Shown here: positions 29,461 through 61,208 of the stretch, one piece after another | How the letters are laid out: the number at the start of each line of letters is the position of its first letter | Position numbering within the stretch: the first letter of the stretch is position 1 | DNA from: a virus | DNA: 64,000 bases | Reading direction: 5' to 3' (one strand) | Virus record (IMG/VR): IMGVR_UViG_3300027801_002650 | Location: 16,840-80,839 of that record | The notes under the pieces: generated by a model | Told to the model about the DNA's origin: nothing | The model's input: only the letters and a program-made list of their open reading frames with translations | Databases searched by the model: none | Translations under genes and position numbers: made by a program

Positions 29461-32298
29461 TTACCATGTTTCGTCGGTGAATGCAATTCTTCTCCAAATG
29501 TTTGTAGCTCCGTCATAGTCTGCTATGCAGTAGTAAAAATAACTTGCATCGGCAGAAATCATTCCTTCCTTGTCTGAGGAAGACCCAACTGAAGTACTGA
29601 CGCTATCTGTTCTTGCTCTTGTCAGTGATTTTACCGTCGTTGGAATATATTTAGCTGACGTCGAATCGTACGCCAGTACGTTATCCTCATTTGGGCTAGT
29701 GTTTTGGTCCACGTCAGAATGATTACTAATACTACCAATCACTTGATCTAGATCCCTGGCTTCCCATAACAAACCATTACCCTTTACGAGCACGTCACCC
29801 TCAGTGGAACCATTCAAAGCATCTACATCACCGAGATCTTGTAGATAATGATTTCCTAATTCGAGTTGTGCATCTGTAGCAGGTGCCCATAGACTTCCGT
29901 CCCATTTTAATACATTTCCTACACTTGGAGGACCTGGTGAAACATTCGTTAAATCCTCAAGTTCGTGCGTATTTTCTACAAGGGATGTTGGTTCAAAAGC
30001 AAGACCAGTCCATTGAAGAACTGCCCCTGACACTAAACCACCACCCATTGAAACATCGGATAGATCCATAATGCTGGAAGACGAAAGATCTAAGGTGTAA
30101 ATGTATTCATCTGCTGGACCCCATTTAGAGGAAGCAGTATCATATTTTAATATTTGTCCATCAGTTGCGACAGTCGTCGACACATCAGGTATGTCAGCAA
30201 GAACGTTTGGTGCTAAAGGCAAGGAATATGAAGTCCATTCCGTCCCATCGTATCTTAGAACATCGCCTACCAACTTCCCTGCTGTTATAGTATCAACGTC
30301 GTTCATAGCATCGATAGTTATCGTGCTCAGAATCTGTAAGTAGGAAGTATCGTCTGCTGGTATAAAGTTGCCTGTAGCAGTCTCATATTTTAAGAGTTGG
30401 CCGTCAGTCGGTGCATTCGTAATAATATCTATATCTGAGAGTCTGTTTAATCCGAAAGAACCAATCTCCGTCATTACGTCATTGCCTGGTTTCCATTTAT
30501 TGTCGCTTGTATCAAACCTCAGGATTTGATCATGCAAAGGTTTATCGACTAAAGGATACGGATACTCAACATCAACAAGGTCACTAAGCTCTGGCATATC
30601 GTTTGCTGCCCAAGTGCCGGCATACCATTCTTCTGCCGTCTGATCCCACCGTAAATACAGTGACTTAGAAGGCGTCGAAGACGCATTTGACGTATTTACG
30701 TCCGAAAAGACCCCCAGCTGGTAAAGGGACGGGTCATTGACATCAACCTCCGCACCCCATCTTTGTGATGCTGTATCCCATTTTAGAACGTAATTATCTG
30801 TGAGGGTAGTAGCATCTACGGGTAAATCTATGTCCGCGAGCTCATGCAGTTTGTTCGTTGATAGATCAACAAAGGTTGCTTCCACATCTCCTGGAATCCA
30901 TTGAGAAATACTTGACTCCCAACGAAGAACCTGATGATGAGATGGAGGATAAACAGAAGTATTAACATCTGCCATTTTATCAACAGTCCCAAACATCGGT
31001 GTATAATTACAGTCAAAAAACGTTCCATCATCTCTAGTAAATGTAACTGTATTTGCTTTAGCACTTGTTTGTGGATTTACGACTGCGTGGGCAGTAGAAG
31101 TATTTGCTGCTGAAGTATCTTGACCTGCCTCCCAACGATTGTTGGTAACACTCCACTGAAGTACTGATTTTTCTATGAGTCCTGCCGTATGTATATCGGC
31201 GAATCTGGTAATAGAATCAAAAAGTGGAGCAACGTTCATTGTTGATTCAGAGTTATTTTCTCTGGTAACGACAACTGTATTTGCTGGTTCGTTCAGTACG
31301 ATGCTTCTTATAGAGGTATTAGAAACTGTATTTGGTGTCCATTTATTTACTGAGGCATTATAATGTAAAAGTTGCCCATCCACTGGAGTCAAATCAGTGT
31401 TAAAATCAATCAACTCAGTAATCGAAAGGTTTTGTGCTTTCCAGACTGAGCCATCCCAGTACAATCTATCACCTGCTACTGGAGCACCAAGATTTACATC
31501 AGCAAGATCATCGATCCCTGAAGTACCGACTGGTGTAACTACCTGAGAAATCCATTTTGTTCCGTTCCAAGTAAGTACGTCATTTACGGAAGCACCTGTA
31601 AGATCAATTCCATCTAAATCCTGAAGTGTTCCTGCGGCATTCACCCATCCGTCATCTATGTCATAAAACTGAAGAAGGTTTAATTCTGTATTTAAACGAA
31701 ATTGCCCTTCGAGACCTGCGGTGTTTGATGTAATGCCCTGTGGTATTTTTATTGGTCCTATAAACTCAGTATTCCCGTATGTAAAACCATCACCATTTAA
31801 ATAAAATTGTCCTTCGACATTAGCATTTGCTTCTGCCGTAAAGTTCGTGAAAATTCTTGTTCTATCAACTTGCATAGTGGCCACGTAATTTTGAGTGCCT
31901 CCAGCATAAAATTTTATTGTCTCGTCATCGATGGTCTCATCTGTTCCATCTAATTTGATCATTGTAGAATTGTCATCGTCAGCGATATAATTGATCGTAC
32001 CTGAGATATCGCCTGTCAATATAATATTGTTACAGGTTATATCACCAGCAGCAAACTGCCCGTCCGGACCTCTCATCACAATAGTATTACCAAAGAAAAG
32101 ATTACCACCTGCTGTTCTGTGGTCAAGGTTCACCGTATTCTGATCAGTAATAGAATTATTGAACAGTTTTACTATTTGATTGAAACCTTGCCTGAACCCA
32201 TCAAGTGTATCTGCTTGGGTAATCTCGACCATAGGATCAAGAGTATTCGCTATTGCGTTATCAGCATTAGTTACTGCGTTATTTGCGTCTTCTGCCAT
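29461..32298 (-). CDS. tail fibre-like virion protein (945 aa) with about 15 LxDLxDV...G(Q/D)VLx(W/Y)DxxxW repeats
   Basis: Repeats are visible in the translation. The C-terminal YFYYCIADYDGATNIWRRIA module is typical of phage fibre ends. RBS TAAGG. Confidence 0.8.
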   Translation of the reverse strand: MAEDANNAVTNADNAIANTLDPMVEITQADTLDGFRQGFNQIVKLFNNSITDQNTVNLDHRTAGGNLFFGNTIVMRGPDGQFAAGDITCNNIILTGDISGTINYIADDDNSTMIKLDGTDETIDDETIKFYAGGTQNYVATMQVDRTRIFTNFTAEANANVEGQFYLNGDGFTYGNTEFIGPIKIPQGITSNTAGLEGQFRLNTELNLLQFYDIDDGWVNAAGTLQDLDGIDLTGASVNDVLTWNGTKWISQVVTPVGTSGIDDLADVNLGAPVAGDRLYWDGSVWKAQNLSITELIDFNTDLTPVDGQLLHYNASVNKWTPNTVSNTSIRSIVLNEPANTVVVTRENNSESTMNVAPLFDSITRFADIHTAGLIEKSVLQWSVTNNRWEAGQDTSAANTSTAHAVVNPQTSAKANTVTFTRDDGTFFDCNYTPMFGTVDKMADVNTSVYPPSHHQVLRWESSISQWIPGDVEATFVDLSTNKLHELADIDLPVDATTLTDNYVLKWDTASQRWGAEVDVNDPSLYQLGVFSDVNTSNASSTPSKSLYLRWDQTAEEWYAGTWAANDMPELSDLVDVEYPYPLVDKPLHDQILRFDTSDNKWKPGNDVMTEIGSFGLNRLSDIDIITNAPTDGQLLKYETATGNFIPADDTSYLQILSTITIDAMNDVDTITAGKLVGDVLRYDGTEWTSYSLPLAPNVLADIPDVSTTVATDGQILKYDTASSKWGPADEYIYTLDLSSSSIMDLSDVSMGGGLVSGAVLQWTGLAFEPTSLVENTHELEDLTNVSPGPPSVGNVLKWDGSLWAPATDAQLELGNHYLQDLGDVDALNGSTEGDVLVKGNGLLWEARDLDQVIGSISNHSDVDQNTSPNEDNVLAYDSTSAKYIPTTVKSLTRARTDSVSTSVGSSSDKEGMISADASYFYYCIADYDGATNIWRRIAFTDETW

Positions 32299-32305
32299 TT
32301 ATACC

Positions 32306-35300
32306 TTATGAGAATGCAAAAAATCTTAATGATTTCAAATATGGAACGGTAGTAGAGTCAGCAGATGTAAAGACAACCTTAACCTGAAAAGTAGAATAGG
32401 TGTCATAGACTATCTCATCTTTGTCTCGTATAATAAAATCCTTTGGTGTTTCCCAACCAAAGGTCGTAATTCCGTCCCCATAAACATATTTATTTTGTGT
32501 ACCTTCGAGTTTATGATACATTGCATCATAAATCTTTTCTTTACTGAATCCTGAGACTGCTCTGAAATACACATGCACGTCAGTGCCTCCTGGTCGAACT
32601 CCCTCTGCCATAACCCGTAATCCTTTAGCAGGTATGTTCGCCCCTGTAGCAAAAATCTTTGAAATGTATCTTGCCTGACAGTTACCTTTATAAGGATCAA
32701 GCTCGCTTTTTGCTCGAATAATAGCGACAGTTGAAGGAGGTGTGGAACCTGACTTCTGTAATACTGTTGCAGTTACATTTCCTGTGTATCCTGTGCCTTG
32801 ATTTGTTACGTTTACTCCAAGAACACGTCCACCTGGCCCAACGACGAGTTCGGCGACTGTAATCTCGAGTCCGTTTGCATATGTTCCACCACCCGTCAGA
32901 GCGATTGTAGCATTTGTATTTCCTGAAGCAGTTGTATCGTAATCATATCCTAGACCTGGCTCTTCAACAATAAAGTCTGAACCAACCATTGTAGCATCGT
33001 TAATAATGTTTTCAGTCGTTACCAATTTCATCTGATCCTTATCGAGGACAGGTGAAACTCTATCATCCCATGTCTGCATGCTTACGTTGATCACGAAAGT
33101 ATTAGAATCATTTGCCATAACTCTTTGCTGACCTTCTCGACCGAAAACATTAAAATTATAGTTTTCGTTTACTCTAAAGGTTGTGTACGACAGATCAGTA
33201 CCAGTTGCTACTGAGGTTGATCGGTATGTAAATCCTGGTTCAGCAATATTCCCGAAAGTCATGTATGGCGACCTGACATAAAAATTATCGTATGCCGCAT
33301 TGACAGTTGGGAAATCCTTGACGTTGAAAAATGCCGCAGAGTTAGGAGTATTATAAAACTTCGCTCTATGTAAATCTATTGTCAAAGTAGTATTATTGTC
33401 CCTGTCCCAGCGACCATGGTTGTTCGTTCTCCAGAGTCCTAGGAAGTGTTTAAATCGTGGAACTCTGTGTTCTTCGTTCAGTAGAGTCTCTCCGACTCGT
33501 GACATGTGCAGTCTGTACTCAGGATTATCCGAGTCAAAACATAAAGCATATGCCTTTCCTGGCTTACAAAAAACAGGATTGAGAAAGGTAAATGCCGTTT
33601 GAGTATCATCATTTGCACTGTCAGGAATTATTACTTGAGTAATCTCAGTTGCCTGAATCAGTACTTCTGAAAAAGGAAGTGTCTCACTCGGAGACGGAAA
33701 TCCATCAACCATAGGACGCATTGAAATTTTCAATGGTAATCCAGTATTGGCGAAAGAATCGCTATTAGCAACATAGCAGAATCCACCTGTTAGAAATAAT
33801 CCTCTTGGATAGTCCGACGGATCAACATAAAGCTCTTGAGCAAAGCACCTCTTAAAATTCGAGGAAGTCTTTTGCCTTTCGACTTCAGTATAATAAACAT
33901 TAGCATCGTTATTGTCTGCTCGTCTCTTGAGAGTTTCCCTTGTCGTAGAATTGTTCGGCAAGAAAGGTTTACCATAAAAGGTTGTTTCCGCGAACGTAGT
34001 CTCTGTTGCAGTTGCATCGGTATCATCAGCATTTGTGATACGAAATACCTTGTCAGTAGCGGTAAATCTACCTGCTGGCAGGTCATATGCTCCAGCAACG
34101 ATCCCAAATTGATCAACAGCAAGCGATGTAGGTGCTGGTTCGAACGTAAGGATCTGACCTCTTGCTCCAGAATCCTGCCCGTCAACCGTATCCACCGAAG
34201 TAGTACTAAAATCCTGATCAGAAGTTTGGATTACGTAGAGTGAAGTCTGATTTGCACTTGGTTTTGCTATAGCAACTACGATACCTACTGCAGTTTCAAG
34301 TGATACTGCTTGTCGTACCTCTTCACCTGTATTGTACAGGGCAGTCGCGATATTTTCGTCATCAAACTTGATTACCTTAGCAAATCGTATGAAGTCTTTA
34401 TCTATTCTTTCGTTATCAAAATAAACAAAAAGATTAGCATGTGCTTTCATTCCCTCAGCAGAAAAATAAACAGTTTGCTTTGGCATGTAAAAGGCAGTCG
34501 TCAAATCTCTTTCGTATGCACCGCCACCTATGCTTTCAGTAAACTGAACAGGTGCAACAGGTTGCATAATATCATCAGAAAGCAAACCGTATTGGCGAGA
34601 AGTCTTTGGTCTTTGTGTCAATCGTATAGAATGTACCCCGTACCAGTGGAACTGGTGCAAGTTCATTACAGCATTTTTATACGGCACGATCGACTTTTCA
34701 AATGCATCGTTCTCACCTACTGTATTAATAATAGTAGAAGGTCTGACAGTATCGTCCATCCAGTTGTTAAACTGAGGAGTAATACTTATCTGACCTCTGA
34801 AAGCAGATCGACCAAAAGGATTCAATGGAACCGTATTAGTATAATATGGATTCGTGAATACAGTATTGTCGTTAATTGCCTCAGCCACTATGAGAGAAGG
34901 GTAACTATCTACGTTCTTAGAAGCGATTGATGAATACTCAAGGTCGTATGTGTTAAGTATTATTTTCGGGTGTACTGTTTTCTCGTACGTATCGACACTT
35001 GCTGCGAAATCAATATTGTCTATGTCACTCTTCCCGTGCCCCTCAAAGTTATCAAAGGCAGAGAATACCGTATTTGGATGCCCGTCATTCATATTCTGGT
35101 TGGCAAAGTTTACAGCCAAATCGTAGAATGGATTTATCTCAGCATCAGCAGGCATCAACCGTATATCAGAAGGATCGGCTGAAAATGGAACTGTAGTAAC
35201 GTCTGTCAGTTCGTAATGGGATTTCCTTGGAATTGGAGCATAAGGTTTTGCAGAATCACTGCCCTCAAGTTTTTCTATGTCAAGTTCGCTGTCAATCTTT

Positions 35301-38300
35301 ATAGTATCGTTTCGCGCAGTATAATATGCTACACTAGTAGAAATACCGTACTCAATACTCGGAAACTTCTTAAACTCGCTTGTCCATATTTGTCCAGTAT
35401 TATCGATTGTCTCAGAAGCAATTGGATCAGTATTTTGTGCCGCACTTGAAATACCAAGATTATTTCTCTGTGGTCTAAAGTCAAGGCAGTTGGACATTGA
35501 ATACTGTTTACCTGTTGCAGACACATGTACTGGTAAATCGTTTCTCGCTATATTATTAGGATATGAATCAATGCAGAAGTAAGAACCACCCGAATCAACG
35601 TGACGAAAGTAATCAAAAATGATACCGATTTGACCCGTTGGTGGTTCACCAATAAGTTTTATCCCACCCCATTCGTAATAGTTATCTTCCATACCAGAAT
35701 ACATCTCGTAGTTCTGGGTTGCATACACCGTATTTGCTCCTGACAAGGATGACCCCGTAGCAGCAGCACTAAGATCCGAAGGATTCAATGCATTTGGCGT
35801 TCCACTTGCATCAACTTGGCTGTCAAGAATCGCCCGTATTCTAAAAACATCTATTGTCTGTAGACTATCAATCAATCCCACAGTTTTATTAGGATCGGTA
35901 ACTATTACAGACTGCCCTTCGAATAAGGTTTTTTGTTTTGGTACTACGGCAGTCTCAGTTTCTGCTGCGAAATACACGTCCACGTTCGATGCTGATCCAG
36001 CATCCTGTATTGTAAATGTAACTTCTTTTGCCTTTGTAGCAGAACCACCCCCCGATAACGAAACCGTATCGTACGATGATGAGAAGTTTAGAGAGTTACC
36101 GACTGGTGTCGACAAAGTATCAGATGTACCTGTGACAAATATTGCGAATAACTCCCTTGCTTTCTTTGCGTCCACATCGGCATTGTCATATTCCGTAAAT
36201 GTAAATCCAGCAGGGGCAGAAACAGAAAGCGACTTTGTTAAGCCAACTCCCCCAGTTACGTTAGTATTCGTTACCTTCCTACTTACGTACTTGGTGTTAA
36301 TAACACCATTCTCATCCCTGATTGAACTTACTTCAAACGGAAGTTCATACAAAAATTGTGATTCTTGACTCTGAGAAAGTAAAACAGAACCACCCTGTGA
36401 ATCCACTCCATTATTCGCCGAAATCTGTAATCGAGTGGGAACTGAAAGTCCGTCATGGACGCAAATTGCTTTAACATCTTTCGCCTGATAGATAAACCTG
36501 TAACCATCACCAGGTAATGGTTCGTTAGGCATCTCTGATACAACGCAAGATGTATTCTGATAATAAGTTTCAATCTTTGTTCTCTGACCTTTTAATGCTC
36601 CCGAAGTAAATTCAACAGTAACTCCGTTGTAGGCATCGTCCAGAGAAGCAGTAGGACCATTGAGCGAAATAAACGTAAGATTCGCTACAGATCCGATAGT
36701 ATTTGCTAAAGTTTGTGGTTTAATATTCCATAGTACTGTCGCATATTCGTTTTTACCTTGATCCACATTTTCTATGTTGTATGGAATAAAGTCTCTCATT
36801 CTTGCTGTCGCCATGACAGTAGAACCCAATTGAGTTTGCGATGCTGTATTTGGTGATATACAGGTATGGAGGTAGAGAACCTGGTCTAGATTCTCTGCGT
36901 CGATCGAGTTTGGTGCCCCAATACCAGAACATAAAAAGTAATTCTGTACAGGTAATCCAACTGAAATCTTATCTAAGTACTGTAACTCTCTTGGAGCACG
37001 AATAGGAAGTGTTTCTGTTCTTTGGTAATTTATAACTGTATTACCTAACTGTAATATTCCTGGCTCAATATGTAATGAGTAAGTATTTGAGTTTACAATA
37101 TTTTGAGTTGTACCATCACCGACAAGAGCATTCAATGTCATCTGTGTATCATTCGCGACTGCTACAACATTGGCACCTGCTGTTGGTGAAACAATATAAG
37201 GTTGGCCACTTAAATATTTCTCAGTTTGCTTTTCGACATATAATTGTGTGTCATTAGAAACTGCGACAATCTCGTAATCTTTATTAGATATGGAAATTTT
37301 CTTTCCAATATCAAAGTCGGCCAGAAACTGTGTATTTGTGCCAGTGATAAAACCTGTACCATTAGTTGATACGGTCCCGTTTCCGTAGTATCTCTGGTTG
37401 CTCAAATAAACAATGTCCCCGACTTTGAAATCGGACGTAAAACTTGTACCTTCACCTGAAATGACAGCTACCGACTGGGCATTTGTTGTGCCTTTAACCC
37501 CAAAGTTTTGAGATATGCTAAGAGTTTGCCGTTTAATAGATTTTCTCTCATATTCTTTCGTGTCATGCCAAATATTTACCGGATCTTCGCTAGCCCATGA
37601 CGACGCAACCACTCCATTCGCTATTCTGAATAACTCAAGGAACTTAGTATTTGCATCTCGGTCAAACGTATTTCCGACAAAGGATGATCCTCGATACTCA
37701 CGTTTGGACAGAACAAGTTTTTGTCTGAACCTTGTGGCACCAGGAGCATTGAAGTTGTATGACCCGTTAGCAGGGTCAAGGAGGGTTCTTCCTAAATCTA
37801 CACCCGACTGAGAAGGACTTGTATTTGCGTCATTCTCATCTACAATGATTTCATCAATGTAAAACCCAACAGAGTAGTCAGGGGCAGAAGAGTATTTTTC
37901 AAGGACCAAATACTGCTCAGGTACGTAGTTCAGAAACCCAGACATATAATAGACGGATTCCTGAACTGATACCAATGAAGCAACATTTGAAGCATTTGGA
38001 ATCTTGGATGGGCCAGTAGCAGAGGTTGTAGTCGCCTGCTCGCCGTCATCATCTGTTGAAACCGTAATACCATCACCAAACTGTTTGTCTGTAAAATATC
38101 TAACTATAAGAGTGTTCATGTCTGCAGCATCGCGAGGAACAACGCCAACGACATATGCTCTGGCCGTACCAGTGGTGTCAGACGCACCAGATATCACTGT
38201 ATTTTGAAATGCACTCGCAACCAAGTCGACGGAGTCGAACTGGTTTTCTAATTTAATGGATGCCAAACCTGTATCAATTACGATACCTCCTCCCGAGACT

Positions 38301-38491: not shown

Positions 38492-38508
38492 ATCCGTAAC
38501 TCTTATTC

Positions 38509-38528
38509 TGGGGCAGTCACCTGCCCCA
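38509..38528 (-). other. intergenic GC-rich hairpin with a GNRA-type loop (mRNA stabiliser or weak terminator)
   Basis: - strand TGGGGCAG-GTGA-CTGCCCCA: perfect 8-bp stem 4 nt after the gp8 stop; no U-tract on the - strand. Confidence 0.65.
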
Positions 38529-38532
38529 TTGA

Positions 38533-40368: not shown

Positions 40369-40417
40369 TTTATTCTCCTGTAAGTTTTAAAAAGTAATAA
40401 AGCATCAATAGCTTTTT

Positions 40418-51067: not shown

Positions 51068-51079
51068 ACCAGATATATC

Positions 51080-52954
51080 CTATGAATTTTGTGACGATGA
51101 TACTGTTGAAGTGTTCCGTGTTGGGTCATTCCCATCCCGATCAACTACAGCATGCATAGTTATTTTTATGTCCTCGTCCAAGATGGCGAGGATCTGGTCA
51201 CGCACTGGGGTAATATCGTTAATTGCAGGACGAACAAAGACATCCAGTTTATCATTATCAAAAGAAAGAGGGCTAAACCCCTGTATCTCTATCTTACCTG
51301 AATCATAATGAACCTTACCTACGTTGGATTTTACAATAGTTTTTTCCAAAGAATTTGGATCGACATAAATAACTCTCAGTCTACCTTGTACAGTATTTTC
51401 AAGATGTAGATCCTCAAATTGACAATTAGCAACTTCAGATCCTGCATCGTTTTCGTGCGAGAATTTTGTTGAGGTTAGTGTGCCGACGTAAGATTGATTA
51501 GGTAAATATAAAGTATTATTCGTTTTCAAATCTAAGTTGTTCTCAGATACGATTGAAGGTATGAATGTTTTTCTAAGTCTGACCGACGTCAAGTTATTTC
51601 TAATGGAAAGGTCTTGTCCGTCTATTTCTGCAATCAAACTTGAATACCTGAATATTCGATCGAAAGTTAACAACTCACCTTTGCTGAAATTCTTAATATA
51701 GGTTGCTACATTCTGAGCTATAATTTCTTGTGGAGTAGGAGTAGCATCAGGATTATAGTACATGTCTATTGTAAGTTCAACAAAGGTATAATCTGGATCA
51801 ATGACGTTTATCCTTATAGCAACAAGATTCCTCTCAGTTAGTTGAAGTCGAATATTTGTTTTTTCGACGTATGAATAGAATGCTCTATTCTGAGGTTTGA
51901 CTGCTATGTAAACATCACCGTATTTTGGAGGGTCATTGTCTTCCCCTCCCCATCCTGTTAGGGAATCTAAGTTCGGTACGAGGACTCTGGTGTATGCCAA
52001 GTAATCCTGGAGAGTAACGCACCTGCCTTGAGCAGCAAAATATTTAGGTGCATTGTATTTTATTTCAGCAACTGCTTCGCGAGGTTTGCCTCCACTCGAT
52101 GCCTGTACTGTTGTAATGATTGCTTCGCTCTGTCCTCCTATTGTGCCTGTGGGAACAAAGTCAAATGCTTTATTGGATGCTTCGCCATTCGTAGAAATGT
52201 AATCAAACAAAACGACGTTGCCGTCTTCGATTTTACGTCCGAGGGTATTATTACCAAATGTGACTTCGTATCTTGCACCATCTATCTCGTCAAGATAATA
52301 GACATTTGATGTGCCAAAGAGCTCAGTTACGTTGTTAGCAATGTGCCAGGTGGATGAGGTATCGTCTAATTGGCTTGACTGAATAACCACGTCAAGAGTA
52401 TTTACGTCTGCCGTTATGTTTTTAACAAGAAACTGTTGATCGGGATTCGTCTCATCATTAATATATGAATGACGAATCGGAGTTCCTTCACGGATTTCTA
52501 TGTTGTTGGCAAAATAGTCACCAGTCCTACTTGGTTTTACAGTAATTGTCTCAGTGGTAACGTAGAAATAAGATTCTCCGTTAACTGTTGTAGAAAATTC
52601 TGTGTACTCTTCTAGGATTAATGGATCAGCAGTTGGTGTATCGGGAATGATCTGAACATTAATAACTGCCATCGGGGCAACCGCAGATCTAGGGGTATAG
52701 CCTATTGCCTTTGCTTTTGAGACAACGTTGTTTCTTAACTGAGCAGATTGCAAAAAGGATTCGTTAGATAGTTGATTGACATAGTACGCATTGTAAAATG
52801 TGTTATACGCCAACATATCTGCCATCAAACTGAGGTTTGATCCCTCAAAGTCAAAATCGGCAAATTGATTCTTGGATTTAACGAATTGCATTAGATTCGA
52901 TTTAATATTATCGAAATCTAAATCGGAAACCTGTAAAGCAGTGTTTACTGCCAT
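51080..52954 (-). CDS. gp6: baseplate wedge subunit gp6
   Basis: LDFDNIKSNL, FDFEGSNL, LAYNTFY, NESFLQSAQLR, GYTPRS, FGNNTLG, QGRCVTLQDY, WGGEDNDPPKYG. Confidence 0.93.
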   Translation of the reverse strand: MAVNTALQVSDLDFDNIKSNLMQFVKSKNQFADFDFEGSNLSLMADMLAYNTFYNAYYVNQLSNESFLQSAQLRNNVVSKAKAIGYTPRSAVAPMAVINVQIIPDTPTADPLILEEYTEFSTTVNGESYFYVTTETITVKPSRTGDYFANNIEIREGTPIRHSYINDETNPDQQFLVKNITADVNTLDVVIQSSQLDDTSSTWHIANNVTELFGTSNVYYLDEIDGARYEVTFGNNTLGRKIEDGNVVLFDYISTNGEASNKAFDFVPTGTIGGQSEAIITTVQASSGGKPREAVAEIKYNAPKYFAAQGRCVTLQDYLAYTRVLVPNLDSLTGWGGEDNDPPKYGDVYIAVKPQNRAFYSYVEKTNIRLQLTERNLVAIRINVIDPDYTFVELTIDMYYNPDATPTPQEIIAQNVATYIKNFSKGELLTFDRIFRYSSLIAEIDGQDLSIRNNLTSVRLRKTFIPSIVSENNLDLKTNNTLYLPNQSYVGTLTSTKFSHENDAGSEVANCQFEDLHLENTVQGRLRVIYVDPNSLEKTIVKSNVGKVHYDSGKIEIQGFSPLSFDNDKLDVFVRPAINDITPVRDQILAILDEDIKITMHAVVDRDGNDPTRNTSTVSSSQNS

Positions 52955-53352
52955 TATCTACCTCTCTGCAAAACTTGTGAAACTTCAACTTCCTGTGTAG
53001 TATCTAGTATTACGCACGTCACAAAAATATCATAACGATGCTTTTCTTCGTCAGGAATGACCTGGACGGACTTAACACTTACCCGTGGTTCTTGCGTCGC
53101 AACAGCAGAACGAATACGGTTTTCCATTCTACTGGCCGTAAGGTTCGTCATTGGTTCAAACAGCATTTCCTTTAAACCAGCACCAAGATCAGGTCTAAAC
53201 AACCTTTCATAAGGACCAGTTGATAATATATTTAAGATCGATGCTTGAACTGCCTGCTCGTTTGTTATTTCGTCGACATCCTTAGTTACAGGATTCCTTT
53301 TCATAGACAAGGAAATATCAGAAAACGTCGTGGGTATTGGTTCAGTAGCCAT
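52954..53352 (-). CDS. gp25: baseplate wedge subunit / sheath initiator gp25
   Basis: NPVTKD, AVQASILNI, ERLFRPDLG, LFE and EPRV motifs; directly upstream of gp6. Confidence 0.93.
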   Translation of the reverse strand: MATEPIPTTFSDISLSMKRNPVTKDVDEITNEQAVQASILNILSTGPYERLFRPDLGAGLKEMLFEPMTNLTASRMENRIRSAVATQEPRVSVKSVQVIPDEEKHRYDIFVTCVILDTTQEVEVSQVLQRGR

Positions 53353-53356
53353 ACAG

Positions 53357-53367
53357 TATTTAGGTTT
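53357..53367 (-). promoter_or_regulatory. candidate T4-type late promoter (AAACCTAAATA) upstream of gp25
   Basis: Fills most of an 18-nt intergenic gap, 4 nt before the ATG; identical to the motif at 40418-40428. Confidence 0.55.
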
Positions 53368-53370
53368 CGT

Positions 53371-56300
53371 CTATGCTACGTCTTCCACTAAAGGAATATT
53401 TTTAGTAATAGCAACAATCTCTCCTGAACTTGCCGGCACCAAAGGATCTGTGACATCAAGGAAAGCAAAGTTTCGACTCTCGCCAGCACCATTTTTAGAG
53501 AACACCATGTAGTACATTGCCTCAATTGGAAGGGCAACATCGGCGACAGGTCTTGAAATCTCTCCAAGATCATCGTCGGATATTGGGGTAACTCCATGAT
53601 TTATTATTCCTGTGTTGGCCGCATGTGCAGTAAAAGCACTTGAGTCTAGTGGAACTGCCAATGCTGTATCCGTAAATAAATCTATTATTTGAGCATTTGC
53701 TGTGCTAACTGAAGCATAATAATCATTATTATTTAGTTCCGTTGTTCCTGCCACAGCAGAGAAGGATATCAATTCCCCTGTCTTAACACCATGTACCTCT
53801 TCTTCCATTGAGATTTGTGTAGAGGTTCCAAGAGAAACAGCACCAACAAACCCCTGTGCATTTGATTTTCTGCCAGTAACATCCACTCTTGTAAAATCCT
53901 CAGTACCATAGTAGATTGTATAATTATCAACAAAGGATTCATCTAACGCAGGAGTAATATCAAATGTACCTGTAATAAAGTTTGGCGTATTCGTAATATC
54001 CTCGAAATGTATTCCCTCAGGTGCGAATCGTGGAAAATATCCATTATCATTAATCGCAATGTTGTAGGAAGTTCGTTGTACTACCTTTTGCCCTGGGACA
54101 TTCTGTTTATCACGAGCAGAGTAAATCATGAAGTGAGTTACCGTCTTATCGAGGTCTGTCAATGGAACTGATGTCGTGAGTAAACCATTCTGGTCAATGG
54201 AACGATAGTTTACGTCTGTCCCAATCTGCGCACCGACTTGCGAGACGGTATTGGTTGCCAGATTGTACTCGCCAAAGAAAACTCTATAAACATCATCGAT
54301 ACCAAACTGAGACACGTGCCCATCACCTCTTTCAATTTTAATATCACCTGCGATCTTATATCTATCTGGTTCTGAATCTGTAAACGCAGCAGACTTAGCA
54401 CCCACCCTTGGTGCTGTAATCTTCCCAAGATCATATTGAACAACAGGAGACAAACCATTTTGGTTCTCAGAATATACCAGCATAGTTTCCATCCTACCGA
54501 AGTCATCAATATCAAGTTGCTCACCAGTAATTGAGACAGTCTGTATTCCTCCACCAGCAGGCAAAATCACAGACCTCCAAGGATCTGTAGTCAAGTCACT
54601 ACCATTTGAATCCCCAAAGAATATTCTATATCCTAATACCGATGAGGTATCCTCAGGTCCAGACTGATCTTTATCCTCAATAGTAAATGATAGATTAGTA
54701 AGAAATGCCTCGTTGATAGAAACAGAGGAAACAACCTCATCTACGATTACTTCAGGTTGTGCAGGCAACGTTGTCGAAATAGGAATGACATGCTCAGCAT
54801 CGGATTCTCTTGACGTATAAAAAGTAACATTCCCAAATTTATTTAAAATACTACAGAATGAAACAAGTAATACGTGAGTAGTACCCTTAGGTATTGTATT
54901 TGCTCCGACTTCAACATCCTTGGCAAGTGGAATATCATTTGTTACTGATTGTTCAAAATCTAATCCCTTTGCCAACCATGAATGTATTTCTTGTGATCGA
55001 ATGTATGTAATATTTTCAAACTCATCTTTTTCTGCCTTTGCCCAATAAAGAGTGTATCCTATTACTTCCCCATTTCTTTCTTCTTCGGCAGTCAACCTCT
55101 CGACCTCAAATTTCCAGAAAAACTTTAGCTTATCTGATCCTGCTCTCATTTGATTAGAGTTAAATCCTAATGCTGCAGCATCTAGCAAGTTGTCAGTTAC
55201 TACTCCTGTTTGGGTTGAGTTTGGATCACGAAGTGCTTGATTAGCATCTAGAGCAGCATTTTCGGCATCAGTTTCTGATACATAACCACCACTTCCCTGT
55301 AAACCTGTTCCAGCATTTTCAAACTTATCAGTTCCGCCTTCAGATAAATCCAAAGTAGTAACCAATCCATCATCTATATCATTTGGAAGCACCATTAAAT
55401 CTTTGGAAATATCACTATTTCGATTCATATCTTCAGAGAACATTGAATCAAAATGACCACCTCTTCGAAGGGTTTCAGACAACTGTTCTTTAATTTCACT
55501 CTGGAACCCAGTTAGGGATTTCTCCAACAACCCACCATATTTTTGTCTGGCATCCTCGAAATTCTTAAATGCTTGGTTGGTGTTTAGGAACTTCATAAAT
55601 GCCCCGAAGTCTGATTCAGCACCAAGCAGCATAACTGCGAATGAATACTTCAAGTGTTTTGGTGGTGCTCCATCTGCTGTCTTCAGTTCGTTCAATTTTT
55701 GCTGGAGACCTGCCTTTCCATTAGCACTAAAAGTCACTCCGTAGATACCGGAGTCTGCAAGTTTCGCCAGTGCCTTTAGCCACTCGAGAAAGTTTACTAT
55801 TCCCGTCTCGAGGTCTTTTAAAAACCCTATCACATCATCAAGTAACTGCACTATCTCAGAAAGGGCATTCGCTCCACCTTTTGCTAATCCTCGTAAGAAC
55901 TGAGTAAACCCCAAAATGGTATTTCTAACAGCGAAGGCAAAGTCTGGGAAGAACTCGGCGACTGTAATCTTTTGAGCAAAGTCTGGAGCCACCGAAGGTG
56001 GAAAATCATATCCACTAAAATCACCCAACTCAGTATTAAATGTACCGAGAACACATGCCTTAGAATCTGCCCCAGTCATTTGTCGATTAACATCAATATT
56101 TCCTTCTCCATCCTCAACTGCTACATAAACCAATTCACCTAGCTGAAAAGGTTGTCCCTCGATTGGTTCGTATTTACCCTGACCCTGTGAATTTGTATAA
56201 GGCATTACTTGAAGTCGTTGAGCACTGTACGCTGATTTTGTATTCGATGAAAATTCTAATTCTCCTGTGCCCGAAGCAGTAGGAACATTATAAGCACTTT

Positions 56301-58035
56301 GGGTGTCTTGTCCTATGATCTTTTCGTTCTTCGCCATTGTGTCAGTCAAAGTTGAATAAGGATTGTAAACATTTCCTCTGTCGTCGACAGCAACTACGTC
56401 TTCCCTTTCAGTTCTTTCGTTCTTTAACACGATGACTGTATTTTTACTTTGCTCACCAATCAGCAAAGTTCCATCTTCAATCTTGTAAAAGGTTTCCTGT
56501 ACCTGTGATTTTGGAAAGAAAGGATTATTGAGTGCTGCTGCTGAGAGTGGTTTTGATGCTACAACCTGACATATGTTTCTTATATGTATCGACCTTACTT
56601 TTGTATGTTCGTTAAATGCCATTGTCAATCGAGCAGTCAGGTCTCCGAAATATTTGTCGAATCCATTAAACACGCGACCCAAAAGTTCTAGAGTCTCAAT
56701 AGGTATGCCATCGATGGTTGCTGCACCAGCATAGAAAATAGCACCTGAGTATTTTGAAAATCCACTATCTAACTCAGCATCGAGCGATGATTCATAATCA
56801 ACTGATTTAAAGAAACCAAAGTCATCGCCTTGGAATGGAGCACCCTTTGTGTCTCCAGCATTAAATCCGAACAGTTTTGGACGACCGAATTTATCTCTCT
56901 TTGGTCTTCCTGGCTCGCCATAAACTTCTTCTACATCGCTTTCTATTGACGCCAGAGAAGCATTTACAGCATCAAGTTTTGCCTGTATAGCACCTTTGTT
57001 CTGGGCAGCAGCATTACTTAAGATTGCTTCGAACTGTAATTTCTGTGAATGGGCAAAGAAGTAATTTTGGGGATTTTTTATTCTCTCTTCTTTTCTATCT
57101 TGTTTAGTCTCACCAGTATGAAGTTCAAAAAGTGGTGCACCAGGTCTGTTGAAATCCCCCTTGTCATCAAAGGCAGACGCCATTGCGTCAAGTGTATCAC
57201 TAGGGGATAACTGTGTTAATCCAAGTGACTCTGATCTTTTGCCAATGTACGCTAAACCAGTATCCATAAGGTAACGTGCCGATCTGGCAGTCGTGCCCAG
57301 AACTCCATCATCGTTTCCGCTATCGTCGTCTGTGATATTTCCTAGATCTGATTTGCCTGATCTTTCTGCAATGATCCTGGATGCTTTAGATCCATACTTT
57401 GCTACAAATCCTTCGACGATAAAAACATCATCCTTGATCTCATTGTATATGTATCGCAATAGAATATTTTTCTTTTCAGCAGGAGTAATTTTAAGAGCTG
57501 TCTTTGTGCTAATTTTTGCTACGTATTCTGTTGCTGCGATTTCATAAGGTTTTAGAAACTGCTCACTTATATACTTCGGTCTTCGAGCACGTTCTGCGTC
57601 TCTTACCTTTTGTGAATCTGGAAGGGCACTATTAATTTTGTATGCCATCTGAAGCATTTCATATGCTACCGATGTATCTTCTATTTCCATCACGTCTTGT
57701 AACAACTGCCCAGGATAACGGAACTCAGCATCTGCCTTAAACTTAGCAACCTTTTCCAGATCAGTGTTACCTGAGTGAATCACCATGTAATAAATCCCTA
57801 CGTTGAATAGGGAGTTGACATAGTCTTCGATCGCCTGACACAAAACCTGAATAGCAATGAAAAAAGGATTTGCCAAACCTGTGAGCAGAAGTTGCAGGAA
57901 GGCAACATTAGATTGTGCCAACTGCGCAAGTTGCTTTACAACCTTAATACAGCTATCTATATCTTTTAGAAAACTGTTTACTGCCTTTTTGTTGTTCGTC
58001 GCAAAGGTAAGACTACTCCATTTATCATCAGCCAC
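53371..58035 (-). CDS. large hypothetical, probably virion protein (1554 aa): duplicated helical segments, Fn3/Ig-like repeats, FCCH-like C-terminal module
   Basis: Located in the baseplate cluster. Repeated Yx(I/L/V)(Y/F)(W/F/Y)(G/A) strands; HGVKTGELISFSAVAGTTELN resembles the FCCH-like module of phage structural proteins. Confidence 0.7.
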   Translation of the reverse strand: MADDKWSSLTFATNNKKAVNSFLKDIDSCIKVVKQLAQLAQSNVAFLQLLLTGLANPFFIAIQVLCQAIEDYVNSLFNVGIYYMVIHSGNTDLEKVAKFKADAEFRYPGQLLQDVMEIEDTSVAYEMLQMAYKINSALPDSQKVRDAERARRPKYISEQFLKPYEIAATEYVAKISTKTALKITPAEKKNILLRYIYNEIKDDVFIVEGFVAKYGSKASRIIAERSGKSDLGNITDDDSGNDDGVLGTTARSARYLMDTGLAYIGKRSESLGLTQLSPSDTLDAMASAFDDKGDFNRPGAPLFELHTGETKQDRKEERIKNPQNYFFAHSQKLQFEAILSNAAAQNKGAIQAKLDAVNASLASIESDVEEVYGEPGRPKRDKFGRPKLFGFNAGDTKGAPFQGDDFGFFKSVDYESSLDAELDSGFSKYSGAIFYAGAATIDGIPIETLELLGRVFNGFDKYFGDLTARLTMAFNEHTKVRSIHIRNICQVVASKPLSAAALNNPFFPKSQVQETFYKIEDGTLLIGEQSKNTVIVLKNERTEREDVVAVDDRGNVYNPYSTLTDTMAKNEKIIGQDTQSAYNVPTASGTGELEFSSNTKSAYSAQRLQVMPYTNSQGQGKYEPIEGQPFQLGELVYVAVEDGEGNIDVNRQMTGADSKACVLGTFNTELGDFSGYDFPPSVAPDFAQKITVAEFFPDFAFAVRNTILGFTQFLRGLAKGGANALSEIVQLLDDVIGFLKDLETGIVNFLEWLKALAKLADSGIYGVTFSANGKAGLQQKLNELKTADGAPPKHLKYSFAVMLLGAESDFGAFMKFLNTNQAFKNFEDARQKYGGLLEKSLTGFQSEIKEQLSETLRRGGHFDSMFSEDMNRNSDISKDLMVLPNDIDDGLVTTLDLSEGGTDKFENAGTGLQGSGGYVSETDAENAALDANQALRDPNSTQTGVVTDNLLDAAALGFNSNQMRAGSDKLKFFWKFEVERLTAEEERNGEVIGYTLYWAKAEKDEFENITYIRSQEIHSWLAKGLDFEQSVTNDIPLAKDVEVGANTIPKGTTHVLLVSFCSILNKFGNVTFYTSRESDAEHVIPISTTLPAQPEVIVDEVVSSVSINEAFLTNLSFTIEDKDQSGPEDTSSVLGYRIFFGDSNGSDLTTDPWRSVILPAGGGIQTVSITGEQLDIDDFGRMETMLVYSENQNGLSPVVQYDLGKITAPRVGAKSAAFTDSEPDRYKIAGDIKIERGDGHVSQFGIDDVYRVFFGEYNLATNTVSQVGAQIGTDVNYRSIDQNGLLTTSVPLTDLDKTVTHFMIYSARDKQNVPGQKVVQRTSYNIAINDNGYFPRFAPEGIHFEDITNTPNFITGTFDITPALDESFVDNYTIYYGTEDFTRVDVTGRKSNAQGFVGAVSLGTSTQISMEEEVHGVKTGELISFSAVAGTTELNNNDYYASVSTANAQIIDLFTDTALAVPLDSSAFTAHAANTGIINHGVTPISDDDLGEISRPVADVALPIEAMYYMVFSKNGAGESRNFAFLDVTDPLVPASSGEIVAITKNIPLVEDVA

Positions 58036-58264
58036 TGTGTTTTTCTTTCTGTATTTCTTTTAATTGTTCAAGTTCTTCTATGCTGTCGCGCAAAGAAGTT
58101 GCAGTTTCTTGAAGTAATTCTGCACTCTCCTGATGCATTTTCCAATGCTCAGGGTGAATCCAGTTATTTTCTTTGAAAGGTTTATCGTCTACGTCTTTGA
58201 GTGCTTGAGGGTATTCCCGCTCAACTGGCGTAGAGTTTATATTTCTTTCTGTTTCTTCTGACAT
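58028..58264 (-). CDS. small hypothetical protein with C-terminal coiled coil
   Basis: ORF bridging two large genes with overlaps at both ends; start likely at ATG 58264 or 58267. Confidence 0.55.
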   Translation of the reverse strand: MSEETERNINSTPVEREYPQALKDVDDKPFKENNWIHPEHWKMHQESAELLQETATSLRDSIEELEQLKEIQKEKHSG

Positions 58265-61208
58265 CATCGTAGATGAGGCCAAGATTCTTAATCGCATTGC
58301 TTGCCTGTTTGAGAGTTCCTATAGCATCACCAGTCAATACCTCTGAAAAGTTATACAGTTCTTCTGAATAACCTTGAGCAGACTGTCCGTGTCCTATAGG
58401 AAAGTTATCTGTGTTTGACGTTGGGTAACCTATACGATTATGGACTGAAAGTTTCCATTCGTCTGTTGCTTGTTTTAGCTGACTTATTGTATCATATAAA
58501 GTTGCCGTGTCATCAGCAAAGGTAAAGGTGAATCCATTTTTATTAGCAAGGGTGTTAGTAAAAGAACTCATTTGGTTCTTAAAATCAGTCTCCCATGCTC
58601 TTAAAATTACCATCTTATCAAATACAAATCTATAGATTGCCCTGTCTTGATCTATACTGGAATCACCAGCATAATGTCCATAGTTATACGTAGTAAGTCC
58701 AACTTTATTATTAGATGAACCAGGTCCCGATGTTTCAGTGTAATATAAATCCCAATGACCATCGGCATGTATATCATAAACAGTAGAACCACCTGCCGAT
58801 TCAACAAACTGTGCTTGTAAAATCCATCTGCCATAAAGTGTCTGCGCAGCTGCTTCAAAATCGTTACTATCAAAAACCTTCGCTAGACCATTCACCTCAC
58901 TTCTCCACTCTTCAGCATTCCAAAGAAGTTTATGCAAATAGTTTCCTGTTGCTACATTATTTACGTCAACCTCTGCGTCGACGACGTAGCTTCCTACGAC
59001 TTCCCAAACTCTTTCTCCATAGAAATTGGTCATCTTGATGTAGTAGGTTCCTGGCTCATGGGTGAATGTGGTCGGATAAGTTGTCCCATTAGTATTAATA
59101 ATCGTCTGCGAAATTGTATCAGTGTAATCATTATATGCTCCGTTGCCAATATTAAAATAAGGCAACTTCGTAGGACTTCCGCCTCCTGCTATTGCATCTC
59201 TTGTCCAAGCAGGTGTCGTGACCGTAGTTGTTCCTGGAGAGCCCCAAGACATATACGAGTTAACCAACGTAGTTCCGTTGTCATTATCAGGACTTGATAG
59301 AAATCTCATGTCTCCCGTGTTTGCCCCATTTAAATCGTACTTCAAATTTCTCAGCCTATCCAAGCCATGTTGAAGGGCATCATTTGCTGTAGAAGTTTTG
59401 ACGTTCTGTATATCAAGCAACTTAGAACCATTCGCGGGATCCGTGGCATATCCAGGCAACGTTAGGTGTGAAAATGTGTCTCCTGGATCTGCTGTGTTGT
59501 ATCCACCGAGAAGTGGGTTCGGTACATATCTCCATCTTGCTTCTGCGAAGACGCAAAACTCAACAGCACCTATTCCGTTGTTAATAGACTCATCCCAGTA
59601 AGCACTCGTGCCTGCGTAAGGAGCACTATCACGAGGAAAATCTTCTACGCCAGCAGGTTGAAATGGATTAAATTCAATGTACGGATATTGATCATCTGGT
59701 CTTCCTGGAGAACCAGCAGTTACATCATCAAAAAATTGTTCCTGTTCATTGCCGGACTTTTGAGTGTTAGATCTAAACTCATCAGGTCGAGTCGCTGCTA
59801 CAATAGACAACTCTGTATTCGCTGCCCATCCTAAAAATGGTAGGAACGAATCATTGTCCATTTTAGTAATTGACTGTGATGGCAGTCCATCCATGTGTCT
59901 GTTGTTTGCCACGAACCAATCAAAATTCATCTGTAGTCCACGACCTGTAATGATAGCAAGTAACCCTGTTGTATGAGCAGGATTAGCATCGTCGTGGTCA
60001 CGCCATCGTCTCAATGGCAGGGTCTTCCCGAATGTAGGTGGGTATATTTTTGTTACATCACCGACCACATAATTTTTTCCGTCTCTTGTATTTGCTGTTC
60101 CACCGATCGAACTATGATGTAATGTTAATTGTGCCGGAAACTCTGTTCCTTCGGCCACGGAATAACTTGATAGGTTCATAGTCCCGTATTGTTGTGACCA
60201 AGAATTTTGCTCATATCCAGCAATGGTATCGACAACTTCATCTGTGAGAATGGCACCAGCTTCAGTTACTGTCCAACGAAATTGCGAGTTAACAACCCCG
60301 ACAGATCCAAAAGCACCCGATGATAGACCCTGAACCTTATTCGATATTTCAAACCCTGTGTCTCCTCTTTCAATTTTTTCCCTACCAACAATATCAACTG
60401 TCATTGTAGTAGTATTGACTGCTGTGACTGAGTCAAGCACCATTGTCATATCACCACTCAAAATAGTTTCAGTGGTTGTGAATGTGGCATCATTTGAAAC
60501 TGAGTTGACCTTAATATTATGTATCAGTTCTGGCGCATAAATATCACAGACAGTAACTCCATTGTTAGACATGCGAAAATCAAATCTAGTATCGGTCGCA
60601 GAATCAGGTCCCAGATAATCTCCATCCTCTGGCTTAAATGCTATATCACCATTAATAAGATTTTGGGGTAAGTATGATGAAGGATCCACGAATACACTTA
60701 TATCCTCATCTATATTGAAAAACTTGTGAGTGTCATAGTCTTGGGCGAGGTAGTAATCTCCTACGTAGTTAGAGAATGTATTCCCGCTGATCACTGCTTT
60801 CGATCCTACGTTGTTACTTAGTTCAACTTCTGACGTGCCATCTAAGGTTACAAGAAGGACTGAAAACCTTGAGGTCGTAGACGGTGCTACATTAGAATAA
60901 GTAATAAAATCATTGAATGTTCCTAGTTCATATTGCATCGTCCAGAGAGGATCATATCCCATCAGTATAGTTCTCAAATCACCCAACTTTTTACATGTTG
61001 AATGTAAGTTCCCGGCACCATTGGCACCTGGGTGCATGAATGCTTTACCTGAAGTATGCCGATAATTATCCGTGTCCGGATCCATCATAACTTCACGTAT
61101 TGATTCAACATCCTTCAGTAGTCGAGTTCGTGTGGTGACTGCGTTTTGCGGTGCATCGATGAGAGACTGATCTGACTCCTGTGCACGTTCGTCTTTAATT
61201 GATCCCAT
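58221..61208 (-). CDS. large hypothetical, probably virion protein (995 aa)
   Basis: Long ORF in the baseplate cluster with T/G/N/D-rich beta-like core and helical termini; no family recognised. Confidence 0.7.
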   Translation of the reverse strand: MGSIKDERAQESDQSLIDAPQNAVTTRTRLLKDVESIREVMMDPDTDNYRHTSGKAFMHPGANGAGNLHSTCKKLGDLRTILMGYDPLWTMQYELGTFNDFITYSNVAPSTTSRFSVLLVTLDGTSEVELSNNVGSKAVISGNTFSNYVGDYYLAQDYDTHKFFNIDEDISVFVDPSSYLPQNLINGDIAFKPEDGDYLGPDSATDTRFDFRMSNNGVTVCDIYAPELIHNIKVNSVSNDATFTTTETILSGDMTMVLDSVTAVNTTTMTVDIVGREKIERGDTGFEISNKVQGLSSGAFGSVGVVNSQFRWTVTEAGAILTDEVVDTIAGYEQNSWSQQYGTMNLSSYSVAEGTEFPAQLTLHHSSIGGTANTRDGKNYVVGDVTKIYPPTFGKTLPLRRWRDHDDANPAHTTGLLAIITGRGLQMNFDWFVANNRHMDGLPSQSITKMDNDSFLPFLGWAANTELSIVAATRPDEFRSNTQKSGNEQEQFFDDVTAGSPGRPDDQYPYIEFNPFQPAGVEDFPRDSAPYAGTSAYWDESINNGIGAVEFCVFAEARWRYVPNPLLGGYNTADPGDTFSHLTLPGYATDPANGSKLLDIQNVKTSTANDALQHGLDRLRNLKYDLNGANTGDMRFLSSPDNDNGTTLVNSYMSWGSPGTTTVTTPAWTRDAIAGGGSPTKLPYFNIGNGAYNDYTDTISQTIINTNGTTYPTTFTHEPGTYYIKMTNFYGERVWEVVGSYVVDAEVDVNNVATGNYLHKLLWNAEEWRSEVNGLAKVFDSNDFEAAAQTLYGRWILQAQFVESAGGSTVYDIHADGHWDLYYTETSGPGSSNNKVGLTTYNYGHYAGDSSIDQDRAIYRFVFDKMVILRAWETDFKNQMSSFTNTLANKNGFTFTFADDTATLYDTISQLKQATDEWKLSVHNRIGYPTSNTDNFPIGHGQSAQGYSEELYNFSEVLTGDAIGTLKQASNAIKNLGLIYDDVRRNRKKYKLYAS

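Follow-up and report, generated by a model that had tools for sequence, protein, structure and literature searches.

Enrichment of the tripeptide Ala-Asn-Thr in outer baseplate and fibre proteins of T4-like phages: a candidate surface motif

The structural block and its tripeptide bias

We analysed a stretch of 64,000 nucleotides (the window), corresponding to bases 16840-80839 of the 80.8-kb IMG/VR viral contig IMGVR_UViG_3300027801_002650, the estimated completeness of which is about 50%. From about 24.6 kb on, the minus strand of the window codes for a T4-type baseplate and fibre module, recognized by Pfam matches and synteny, and the subject of this study is the tripeptide Ala-Asn-Thr (ANT), which is strongly over-represented in six of its open reading frames (ORFs). 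The identified parts of the module are a gp5-like protein (Gp5_OB), gp25, a gp6-like protein, gp8 (Phage-Gp8) and a DUF4815/VrlC-like protein of 2061 amino acids (aa); the rest are large ORFs without a Pfam match (Table 1). One of the latter, a giant protein of 3545 aa, is called gp7 on the basis of synteny with S-SM2. The gp8 protein is at most 30-36% identical to those of cultured phages (Ochrobactrum phage OC, Pelagibacter phage HTVC008M, cyanophages), and neither a megablast search of cultured phages with the structural block nor a PDB sequence search with the 945-aa fibre-like ORF gave a match.

ANT occurs 25 times in the 9,711 aa of the six minus-strand ORFs (4, 6, 2, 8, 2 and 3 times in the order of Table 1). 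These are exactly the counts made by hand in an initial annotation of the window, which had proposed the tripeptide as a candidate modification acceptor motif and had put the chance expectation at a handful. The expectation computed from the composition of each protein is 3.85, which corresponds to a 6.5-fold enrichment (Poisson p 7e-13). The excess persists after composition-matched shuffling, 300 per-protein shuffles averaging 3.9 and never exceeding 10. ANT ranks first among the 8000 tripeptides (5.6e-9 after Bonferroni correction), and the runner-up, NTV, is not significant once corrected. The top two dipeptides by enrichment are AN (1.81-fold) and NT (1.74-fold); a first-order Markov model predicts 12.1 ANT, still well below the number observed (p 8e-4). 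The related tripeptide Ser-Asn-Thr (SNT), of which about a dozen had been noted, occurs 11 times in the six ORFs against 4.1 expected (p 3e-3, rank 23), a weak signal when taken alone, and ANG is 3.6-fold enriched.

Such a bias could be a statistical or compositional artefact, arising from local richness in Ala, Asn and Thr, from internal repeats or from a word selected at the DNA level. The six proteins are indeed rich in these residues, and some of the ANT tripeptides of related phages stem from tandem repeats. However, ANT stands alone among the six possible orders of its residues: the others, ATN (4), NAT (2), NTA (8), TAN (7) and TNA (5), stay near the same expectation of 3.85, which rules out local composition as the cause. 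The sequences around the 25 sites resemble one another no more than do those around random sites, in agreement with the non-homologous contexts reported initially, so that internal repeats are also ruled out. The nucleotide word GC.AAYAC is found 25 times in sense frame 0, once in each of the other sense frames and three times in antisense, and the sites are written as 13 different 9-mers with a codon usage near background. The signal consequently lies at the protein level, which excludes a methylation site, a promoter or a Chi-like sequence. Since ANT keeps its first rank after correction and the excess recurs in dozens of divergent contigs (see below), an artefact is hardly credible.

The enrichment is also protein-specific, because the other eight minus-strand ORFs (the 1102-aa ORF, gp6, gp25, the gp5-like protein and others) contain no ANT where 9.8 would be expected at the 6.5-fold rate (P 6e-5). 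The 1102-aa fibre-like ORF has the highest content of Ala, Asn and Thr in the block and 13 N-x-T tripeptides, yet no ANT; it may belong to another class of fibres, such as distal, fast-evolving receptor binders. The initial annotation had also remarked that the plus-strand enzymes lack ANT. This is correct but carries no weight: 0.98 would be expected (P(0)=0.38), and for [AS]NT none is observed against 2.5 expected (P=0.08), so the absence is not significant and is uninformative. Another candidate motif, [ST]-G-S, was discarded, as it is at 0.9-fold in this phage and at 1.2-2.0-fold in ANT-enriched and non-enriched genomes alike, and thus does not discriminate between them.

Table 1. Features of the window and of related genomes. 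Positions are those of the window unless another contig is named; the first residue of each tripeptide is given in protein numbering, followed where available by DNA positions.
Feature	Coordinates	Strand	Remarks	ANT observed/expected	ANT sites	SNT sites
945-aa fibre-like ORF	29461..32298	-	No Pfam match	4/0.56	17, 339, 398, 415 (DNA 32242-32250, 31276-31284, 31099-31107, 31048-31056)	191, 326
2061-aa DUF4815/VrlC-like protein	32306..38491	-		6/0.98	55, 222, 280, 596, 919, 1581 (DNA 38321-38329, 37820-37828, 37646-37654, 36698-36706, 35729-35737, 33743-33751)	468, 1796
gp8 baseplate wedge protein, 611 aa	38533..40368	-	Pfam Phage-Gp8	2/0.36	299, 499 (DNA 39466-39474, 38866-38874)	421
3545-aa giant protein, gp7 position (gp6/gp8 flanking)	40430..51067	-	No Pfam match	8/0.93	627, 986, 1781, 2252, 2909, 3108, 3157, 3321	617, 1460, 3028
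1554-aa virion ORF	53371..58035	-	No Pfam match	2/0.52	1045, 1473	597
995-aa virion ORF	58221..61208	-	No Pfam match	3/0.50	372, 463, 629	480, 931
1102-aa fibre-like ORF	26145..29453	-	A/N/T-rich; outside the enriched set	0		2 in all
gp6-like (624 aa) and gp25 (132 aa) baseplate wedge proteins	51080..53352	-		0		0
Enzyme island, part in the window	169..24662	+	AMP-binding enzyme, about 15 radical SAM/SPASM paralogs, weak QueC-like ORF, many unassigned ORFs			
Enzyme island, part upstream of the window	L220:12363-16840 (to contig position 12363)		Carbamoyltransferase, Asp_Arg_Hydrox, nitroreductase and Trp-halogenase-like genes			
270-aa QueC-like ORF	10547-11359	+	Among radical SAM genes; weak C-terminal QueC match, E 5e-5			
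Island of Pelagibacter phage Mosig (MT647606.1)	L100:29700-41458		Carbamoyltransferase, three 'MoaA-like' radical SAM genes, two nitroreductases, methyltransferase, aminotransferase, Asp_Arg_Hydrox			
Repeat fibre, G003 contig	9388-12486 (spanning L116/L067)	+				
Repeat fibres, G001	22978-24864 (L012); 42321-43493 (L008:19477-20649)					
GT-A-like gene, G001	151630-152478 (L018:11630-12478)					
GT1 gene, G001	91469-92488 (L015:11469-12488)					

Conservation, spread and structural setting of the motif

Seven close relatives of the phage, represented by short contigs (L001-L007, gp8 identity 76-95%), have the same ANT excess. Conservation of individual sites was assessed in the ortholog set of one of them, L004, in which identity ranges from 55 to 86% depending on the protein. 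There, 13 of 20 ANT sites are retained, whereas the rate at which all other tripeptides are conserved would predict 5.7 (P 5e-4). At [A/S]NT sites the Asn is kept in 26 of 28 cases, compared with 56% for other Asn residues (p 8e-5), and the Thr equally in 26 of 28, compared with 55% for other Thr (p 4e-5). Retention above background of the tripeptide and of both its conserved residues shows purifying selection on the motif. Three of the four sites of the 945-aa fibre ORF persist at 55% identity, as do five of the six in the VrlC-like protein at 62% identity (tripeptide baseline 0.27) and three of the eight in the 3545-aa protein, where two others have become SNT; ANT499 of gp8 is also ANT in the more distant G001 (L008), at 36% identity. 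The first residue of the motif is freer, with Ala, Ser and Gly exchanging, and ANT and SNT replace each other at orthologous sites in both directions, which bears out the initial grouping of the two tripeptides. An alignment of 25 VrlC orthologs contains 88 distinct ANT columns, nearly all private to one lineage, and a single widely shared site, with 4-12 ANT per ortholog in enriched lineages and 0-2 in non-enriched ones. These alignments show that the density of the motif is maintained while its positions turn over.

To follow the bias further, we scored ORFs of at least 300 aa in 80 IMG/VR loci around gp8 homologues. ANT is enriched 3-8.8-fold in about 65 loci, many with p<1e-6, and at or below 1.3-fold in about 16. 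Some of the low-scoring loci merely lack the enriched proteins. The sister contigs L086 (1.2-fold) and L091 (5.0-fold), considered as a natural gain/loss pair, were rejected as such: they differ only in the proteins covered by each fragment, and some apparently non-enriched fragments are therefore coverage artefacts. In genomes that are whole or nearly so, only the structural block shows the excess, and within it only some of the virion proteins, non-structural genes being at expectation. ANT is the first or second tripeptide in G000, G001, G003, G004, G006 and Stenotrophomonas phage DLP_6. The latter is a cultured phage (27 ANT against 6.3 expected), as are Caulobacter phage Cr30 (19 against 4.4) and Sinorhizobium phage phiM12 (16 against 5.2). 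In Cr30 (NC_025422.1, ORFs of at least 450 aa) SNT ranks first (27 against 6.1, p 4e-10) and ANT third; the preferred first residue therefore differs among lineages. No excess was seen in the cyanophages S-SM2 and ACG-2014f, in Pelagibacter phage HTVC008M or in Methylophilales phage Melnitz, and it is weak or non-significant in Pelagibacter phage Mosig (8 against 4.2), Ochrobactrum phage OC (1.6-1.8-fold) and T4 (1.9-fold). In a gp8 tree (FastTree, rooted at midpoint, which leaves the direction of change open) the non-enriched phages form a clade of 13 rows comprising cyanophages, pelagiphages and Melnitz, while the other 82 rows are mostly enriched. By these comparisons, the ANT excess is a trait of a large non-cyanophage clade of T4-like phages and not of this one phage.

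When 227,000 aa of the enriched loci are pooled, the residue preceding Asn-Thr is Ala 5.2-fold, Ser 2.3-fold and Gly 1.6-fold over expectation, and the residue following Ala-Asn is Thr 5.2-fold, Val and Gly 2.8-fold each, Asn 2.3-fold and Ser 2.2-fold; the non-enriched loci have none of these preferences. The 381 non-redundant ANT sites yielded no extended consensus, with only a mild depletion of Pro and charged residues beside the motif. ANT is the most favoured form of a linear motif that is short and centred on Asn, [A>S>G]-N-[T>V,G>N,S], and that lies in loops of outer baseplate and fibre proteins.

The structural setting of the sites was examined in AlphaFold2 models of residues 1-1000 of the VrlC-like protein (mean predicted local distance difference test score, pLDDT, 70.7; alignment of 62 sequences) and of gp8 (79.1; 68 sequences), with pLDDT and DSSP strings serving as proxies for solvent exposure. 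Five of the seven modelled ANT sites fall in segments of pLDDT<50, which make up 14.5% of residues (P 1e-3, on a small number of sites): positions 222, 280 (Ala280 at the segment edge) and 596 of the VrlC-like protein, and both gp8 sites, which lie in loops directly after strands. ANT55 forms the C-terminal end of a long helix and ANT919 a confidently predicted loop preceding a strand; with regard to helical context, the seven comprise one long-helix end, one short helix and five loops. Among the SNT sites, Ser468-Asn469 of the VrlC-like protein is modelled as a two-residue hairpin turn and SNT421 of gp8 lies in a 3-10 turn. The 62 VrlC homologues contain 79 distinct ANT columns, of which 30 are in insertions and 49 map to the model, where coil accounts for 33, helix for 9 and strand, which makes up 38% of the model, for 7. 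As judged from these models, the sites share no single structural context. In close relatives the loops of low confidence change no more than the rest of the proteins and may therefore be ordered in the assembled baseplate.

Such loops could owe the motif simply to the way these proteins are built. A small residue followed by Asn and Thr, Val or Gly would, unmodified, form turns, strand ends, helix C-caps or inter-subunit contacts and, in fibres, polar core layers comparable to the N(d)-T layers of trimeric coiled coils. The preference at the position after Asn (T > V ~ G) matches isosteric and turn preferences, ANG is enriched along with ANT, the modelled hairpin at Ser468-Asn469 and the helix end at ANT55 are of the required kind, the loops may be ordered, and the weak bias of T4 is in line with such a habit, as are the recurrent N(d)-T motifs of trimeric autotransporter coiled coils (PMC13580157). 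Periodic repeats in the fibres of two relatives, G001 and G003, point the same way: they contain tandem L-ANT-N-x-Y-I-A units, poor in Pro and Gly, with a period of 18-27 residues, and are probably structural. On the other hand, no single context unites the sites, and [IVL]-x-x-N-T, the rule for Asn at position d of a coiled coil, applies to only 4 of the 25 (a rough chance estimate, not computed, is about 20%). VrlC orthologs of the same fold have only 0-2 ANT each in cyanophages, pelagiphages and Melnitz, positions turn over while density is kept, and fibre and baseplate proteins of the same virion that are rich in Ala, Asn and Thr do without ANT. We regard a purely structural role as a serious contender, though clearly short of an even chance.

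The repeat fibres deserve description in their own right. Their unit reads L-ANT-N-[AS]-[YW]-I-A-[TS]-K-A-D-S-T-T-V, with a spacing of 18, 20 or 27 residues, and one G003 fibre protein of 1032 aa contains 35 ANT. The C-terminal part of a 390-aa G001 fibre resembles fibre gp28 of cyanophage P-SCSP1u (8i4m, E 1e-8). These proteins constitute an undescribed fibre repeat family. Part of the excess in relatives comes from them; periodic ANT repeats are found only in relatives' fibres, the 25 sites of the window being singletons.

A third possibility is that the motif serves for binding without being modified, its partner being an assembly chaperone, adjacent subunits of the virion or a ligand of the host surface or the environment. 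A short linear motif in loops, conserved by lineage and limited to a subset of distal tail proteins, would suit such a role, and so would the conservation of the low-confidence loops. However, no candidate partner was identified, a tripeptide offers little binding specificity and positional turnover would be odd for fixed contacts between subunits, which makes non-catalytic recognition rather unlikely.

The neighbouring enzyme island

Beside the structural module lies an island of enzyme genes on the plus strand, about 29 kb in all and including a dozen unassigned ORFs. Its radical SAM genes, many of them with SPASM domains, form an array that is unusually large for a phage. The initial annotation had proposed that ANT is a sequon for the enzymes encoded there (radical SAM proteins, an Asn-hydroxylase-like oxygenase or neighbouring glycosyltransferases), a proposal that would link the two halves of the window. 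The two blocks do adjoin, and a single Asp_Arg_Hydrox (Asp/Asn beta-hydroxylase-like) gene lies just upstream of the window. SPASM radical SAM and Asp_Arg_Hydrox enzymes modify peptides and proteins. Nevertheless, the neighbouring glycosyltransferases are not to be found: Pfam and PHROGs gave no glycosyltransferase match for any of the island's ORFs.

The distribution of the other enzymes is equally at odds with the proposal. The complete genomes of DLP_6, Cr30 and phiM12, with a 3-4-fold ANT enrichment, have neither radical SAM nor Asp_Arg_Hydrox genes; the enriched contigs G005 and G006 (70-80% complete) have no radical SAM gene; enriched G001 and G004 have only one and two, respectively; and Asp_Arg_Hydrox is absent from G001 and G005. 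Conversely, Mosig carries a smaller, related island beside its structural genes, with three Asp_Arg_Hydrox hits, yet shows no clear enrichment. The contigs L001-L007 were too short to be scored for the island. These gene counts rule out a link of ANT to the number of radical SAM genes as well as to Asp_Arg_Hydrox, and enrichment did not co-occur with either family across the related phages. An equal excess in phages devoid of the island (DLP_6, Cr30, phiM12, G005, G006) is what the annotation itself had named as evidence against its proposal. Thus, the candidate acceptor motif stands as a real, selected, Asn-centred loop motif, whereas its role as a sequon of the adjacent enzymes fails by distribution and is very improbable. 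ANT enrichment is independent of the radical-SAM island, which consequently needs a separate explanation.

The enzymes of the island are rich in the tripeptide PCC (9 against 0.25 expected), probably a shared motif of the radical-SAM paralogs. The weak similarity of the QueC-like ORF hints that the substrate of some of the island's genes might be a nucleoside or deazapurine-like compound and not a protein. Mosig, being cultured, is a possible model for studying the island.

A candidate surface tag and its counterparts

The reading that we tentatively place first, while giving it somewhat less than an even chance, is that ANT is an Asn-centred surface tag of the distal tail, an acceptor or recognition site at Asn for a clade-wide factor. 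Selection keeps [A>S>G]-N-[T>V,G>N,S] dense in the loops of particular outer baseplate and fibre proteins, and Asn would most plausibly be the acceptor or recognition site of a factor conserved in the clade. This factor might be, for example, Asn-linked glycosylation by conserved phage glycosyltransferases and not the adjacent radical-SAM island; the data show the enrichment at the protein level, its conservation, its place in loops, its spread among phages and its independence from the island, whereas both the chemical modification of Asn and the identity of the enzyme are what we infer. A surface tag is favoured because the motif has no wider context, lies in loops, conserves Asn-Thr, turns over at constant density and is specific to lineage and protein. 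A structural role remains nearly as likely.

Candidate enzymes were sought by comparing the gene content of near-complete enriched genomes with that of non-enriched ones. Only two non-structural families track the ANT trait: a GT-A-like protein (phrog_1574, with a weak Pfam GT21 match), present in 7 of the 7 near-complete enriched genomes, and a GT1-family protein (phrog_2170), found in 6 of 7. Neither family occurs in G007, HTVC008M, Mosig, Melnitz, S-SM2 or T4. A GDP-mannose dehydratase and a KDO-8-P-synthase-like gene are common to some of the enriched genomes. In the PDB the GT-A-like protein had only a non-significant hit (E 0.6), to chain 2c0n_A 'A197', which we take to be the STIV A197 glycosyltransferase.

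Several observations weigh against a modified tag, and above all against its link with these enzymes. Ochrobactrum phage OC has both glycosyltransferases and yet only its 1.6-1.8-fold ANT excess. In DLP_6 and phiM12 the GT-A-like gene lies beside the gp45/gp46 (sliding clamp, replication) genes, a position that suggests an early function, such as modification of DNA or of the host. Neither gene is on the 80.8-kb contig of this phage, of which about half of the genome is represented. The association is also phylogenetically confounded, because the enriched genomes form essentially one large group in the gp8 tree. For these reasons the co-occurrence is weak evidence of an enzymatic link. As regards the tag itself, Val and Gly as second choices after Asn fit a steric or turn preference equally well, and the tandem fibre repeats of relatives look structural.

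The strongest form of the proposal, that a large and mostly uncultured T4-like clade including Cr30, phiM12 and DLP_6 decorates the Asn of [A/S/G]-N-[T/V/G] in loops of its distal baseplate and fibre proteins by a phage-made modification, is possible but doubtful. If true, it would to our knowledge be the first system of N-linked virion glycosylation, or of another Asn modification, in bacteriophages. We know of no published description of the ANT bias, and a search of the phage literature found none. The first rank among 8000 tripeptides, the conservation and the location in loops in dozens of divergent phages nevertheless constitute a strong signal of selection on the phage surface, and since ANT occurs in the laboratory-grown Cr30, phiM12 and DLP_6, a tag and a building habit can be told apart directly by experiment. 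A modification site would represent a widespread means by which phages coat their host-recognition apparatus, and would matter for host range, for stability and for how defence or immune systems recognize phages; a structural motif would amount to a design rule of this lineage, of use in the modelling of giant baseplate proteins.

Among known systems, mycobacteriophages offer one comparison: their virions are reportedly glycosylated by phage-encoded glycosyltransferases, with O-glycosylation of capsid and tail-tube proteins in siphoviruses. The proposal is alike in both cases, a glycosyltransferase of the phage acting on virion proteins that are exposed; the motif described here differs in being centred on Asn, in residing in T4-like myoviruses, on baseplate and fibre proteins of the distal tail, and in having a correlative link only to the enzyme. 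Bacterial HMW1C/NGT and PglB sequons (N-X-S/T and D/E-X-N-X-S/T) likewise use Asn acceptors in surface proteins, with many sites per adhesin, but place the hydroxy residue at the second position after Asn and not the first. In the pooled phage sites, Thr and Ser at the second position are each only 1.5-fold enriched and the conserved Thr is at the first, so that the canonical sequon does not describe them; the genomes examined showed no homologue of NGT or PglB, although no search was aimed at them.

For the structural alternative, a counterpart is provided by the N(d)-T polar core layers of trimeric autotransporter adhesin coiled coils (Hartmann et al. 2009, as cited in PMC13580157). There too Asn-Thr recurs in fibrous trimeric surface proteins, and the L-ANT-N-x-Y-I-A repeats of relatives resemble these layers, whereas the 25 sites of the window are mostly in predicted loops of beta-rich proteins.

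Chloroviruses offer a documented precedent for a tag. Their capsid N-glycans are attached by virus-encoded machinery to the Asn of NTGT, NTET, NTAT, NIPG, NVAT, NVGY and similar sites, the first four being the sites of the PBCV-1 major capsid protein Vp54, with variants in NY-2A and CVM-1 (PMC9614988). Those sites were demonstrated chemically whereas the phage motif is known from sequence, the host there is a eukaryote, and neither the proteins nor the enzymes are related to those of the phages. The NTXT rule does not extend to the window, as ANTxT occurs in 3 of the 25 sites against a rough chance figure of about 2 (Thr being 7-10% of the proteins), and Thr at the third position after Asn is only 1.3-fold enriched in the pooled sites. 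In both cases, however, virion proteins of DNA viruses that carry their own sugar enzymes have Asn followed directly by Thr, or by Val, Ile or Gly, and not N-X-S/T; in the phages this takes the form of the Thr, Val and Gly preferences after Ala-Asn. The spectrum (T, V/I, G) at the residue following the chlorovirus Asn resembles that of the ANT-type motif, an analogy which, if the Asn is indeed modified, would make the latter a non-canonical sequon convergent with that of chloroviruses.

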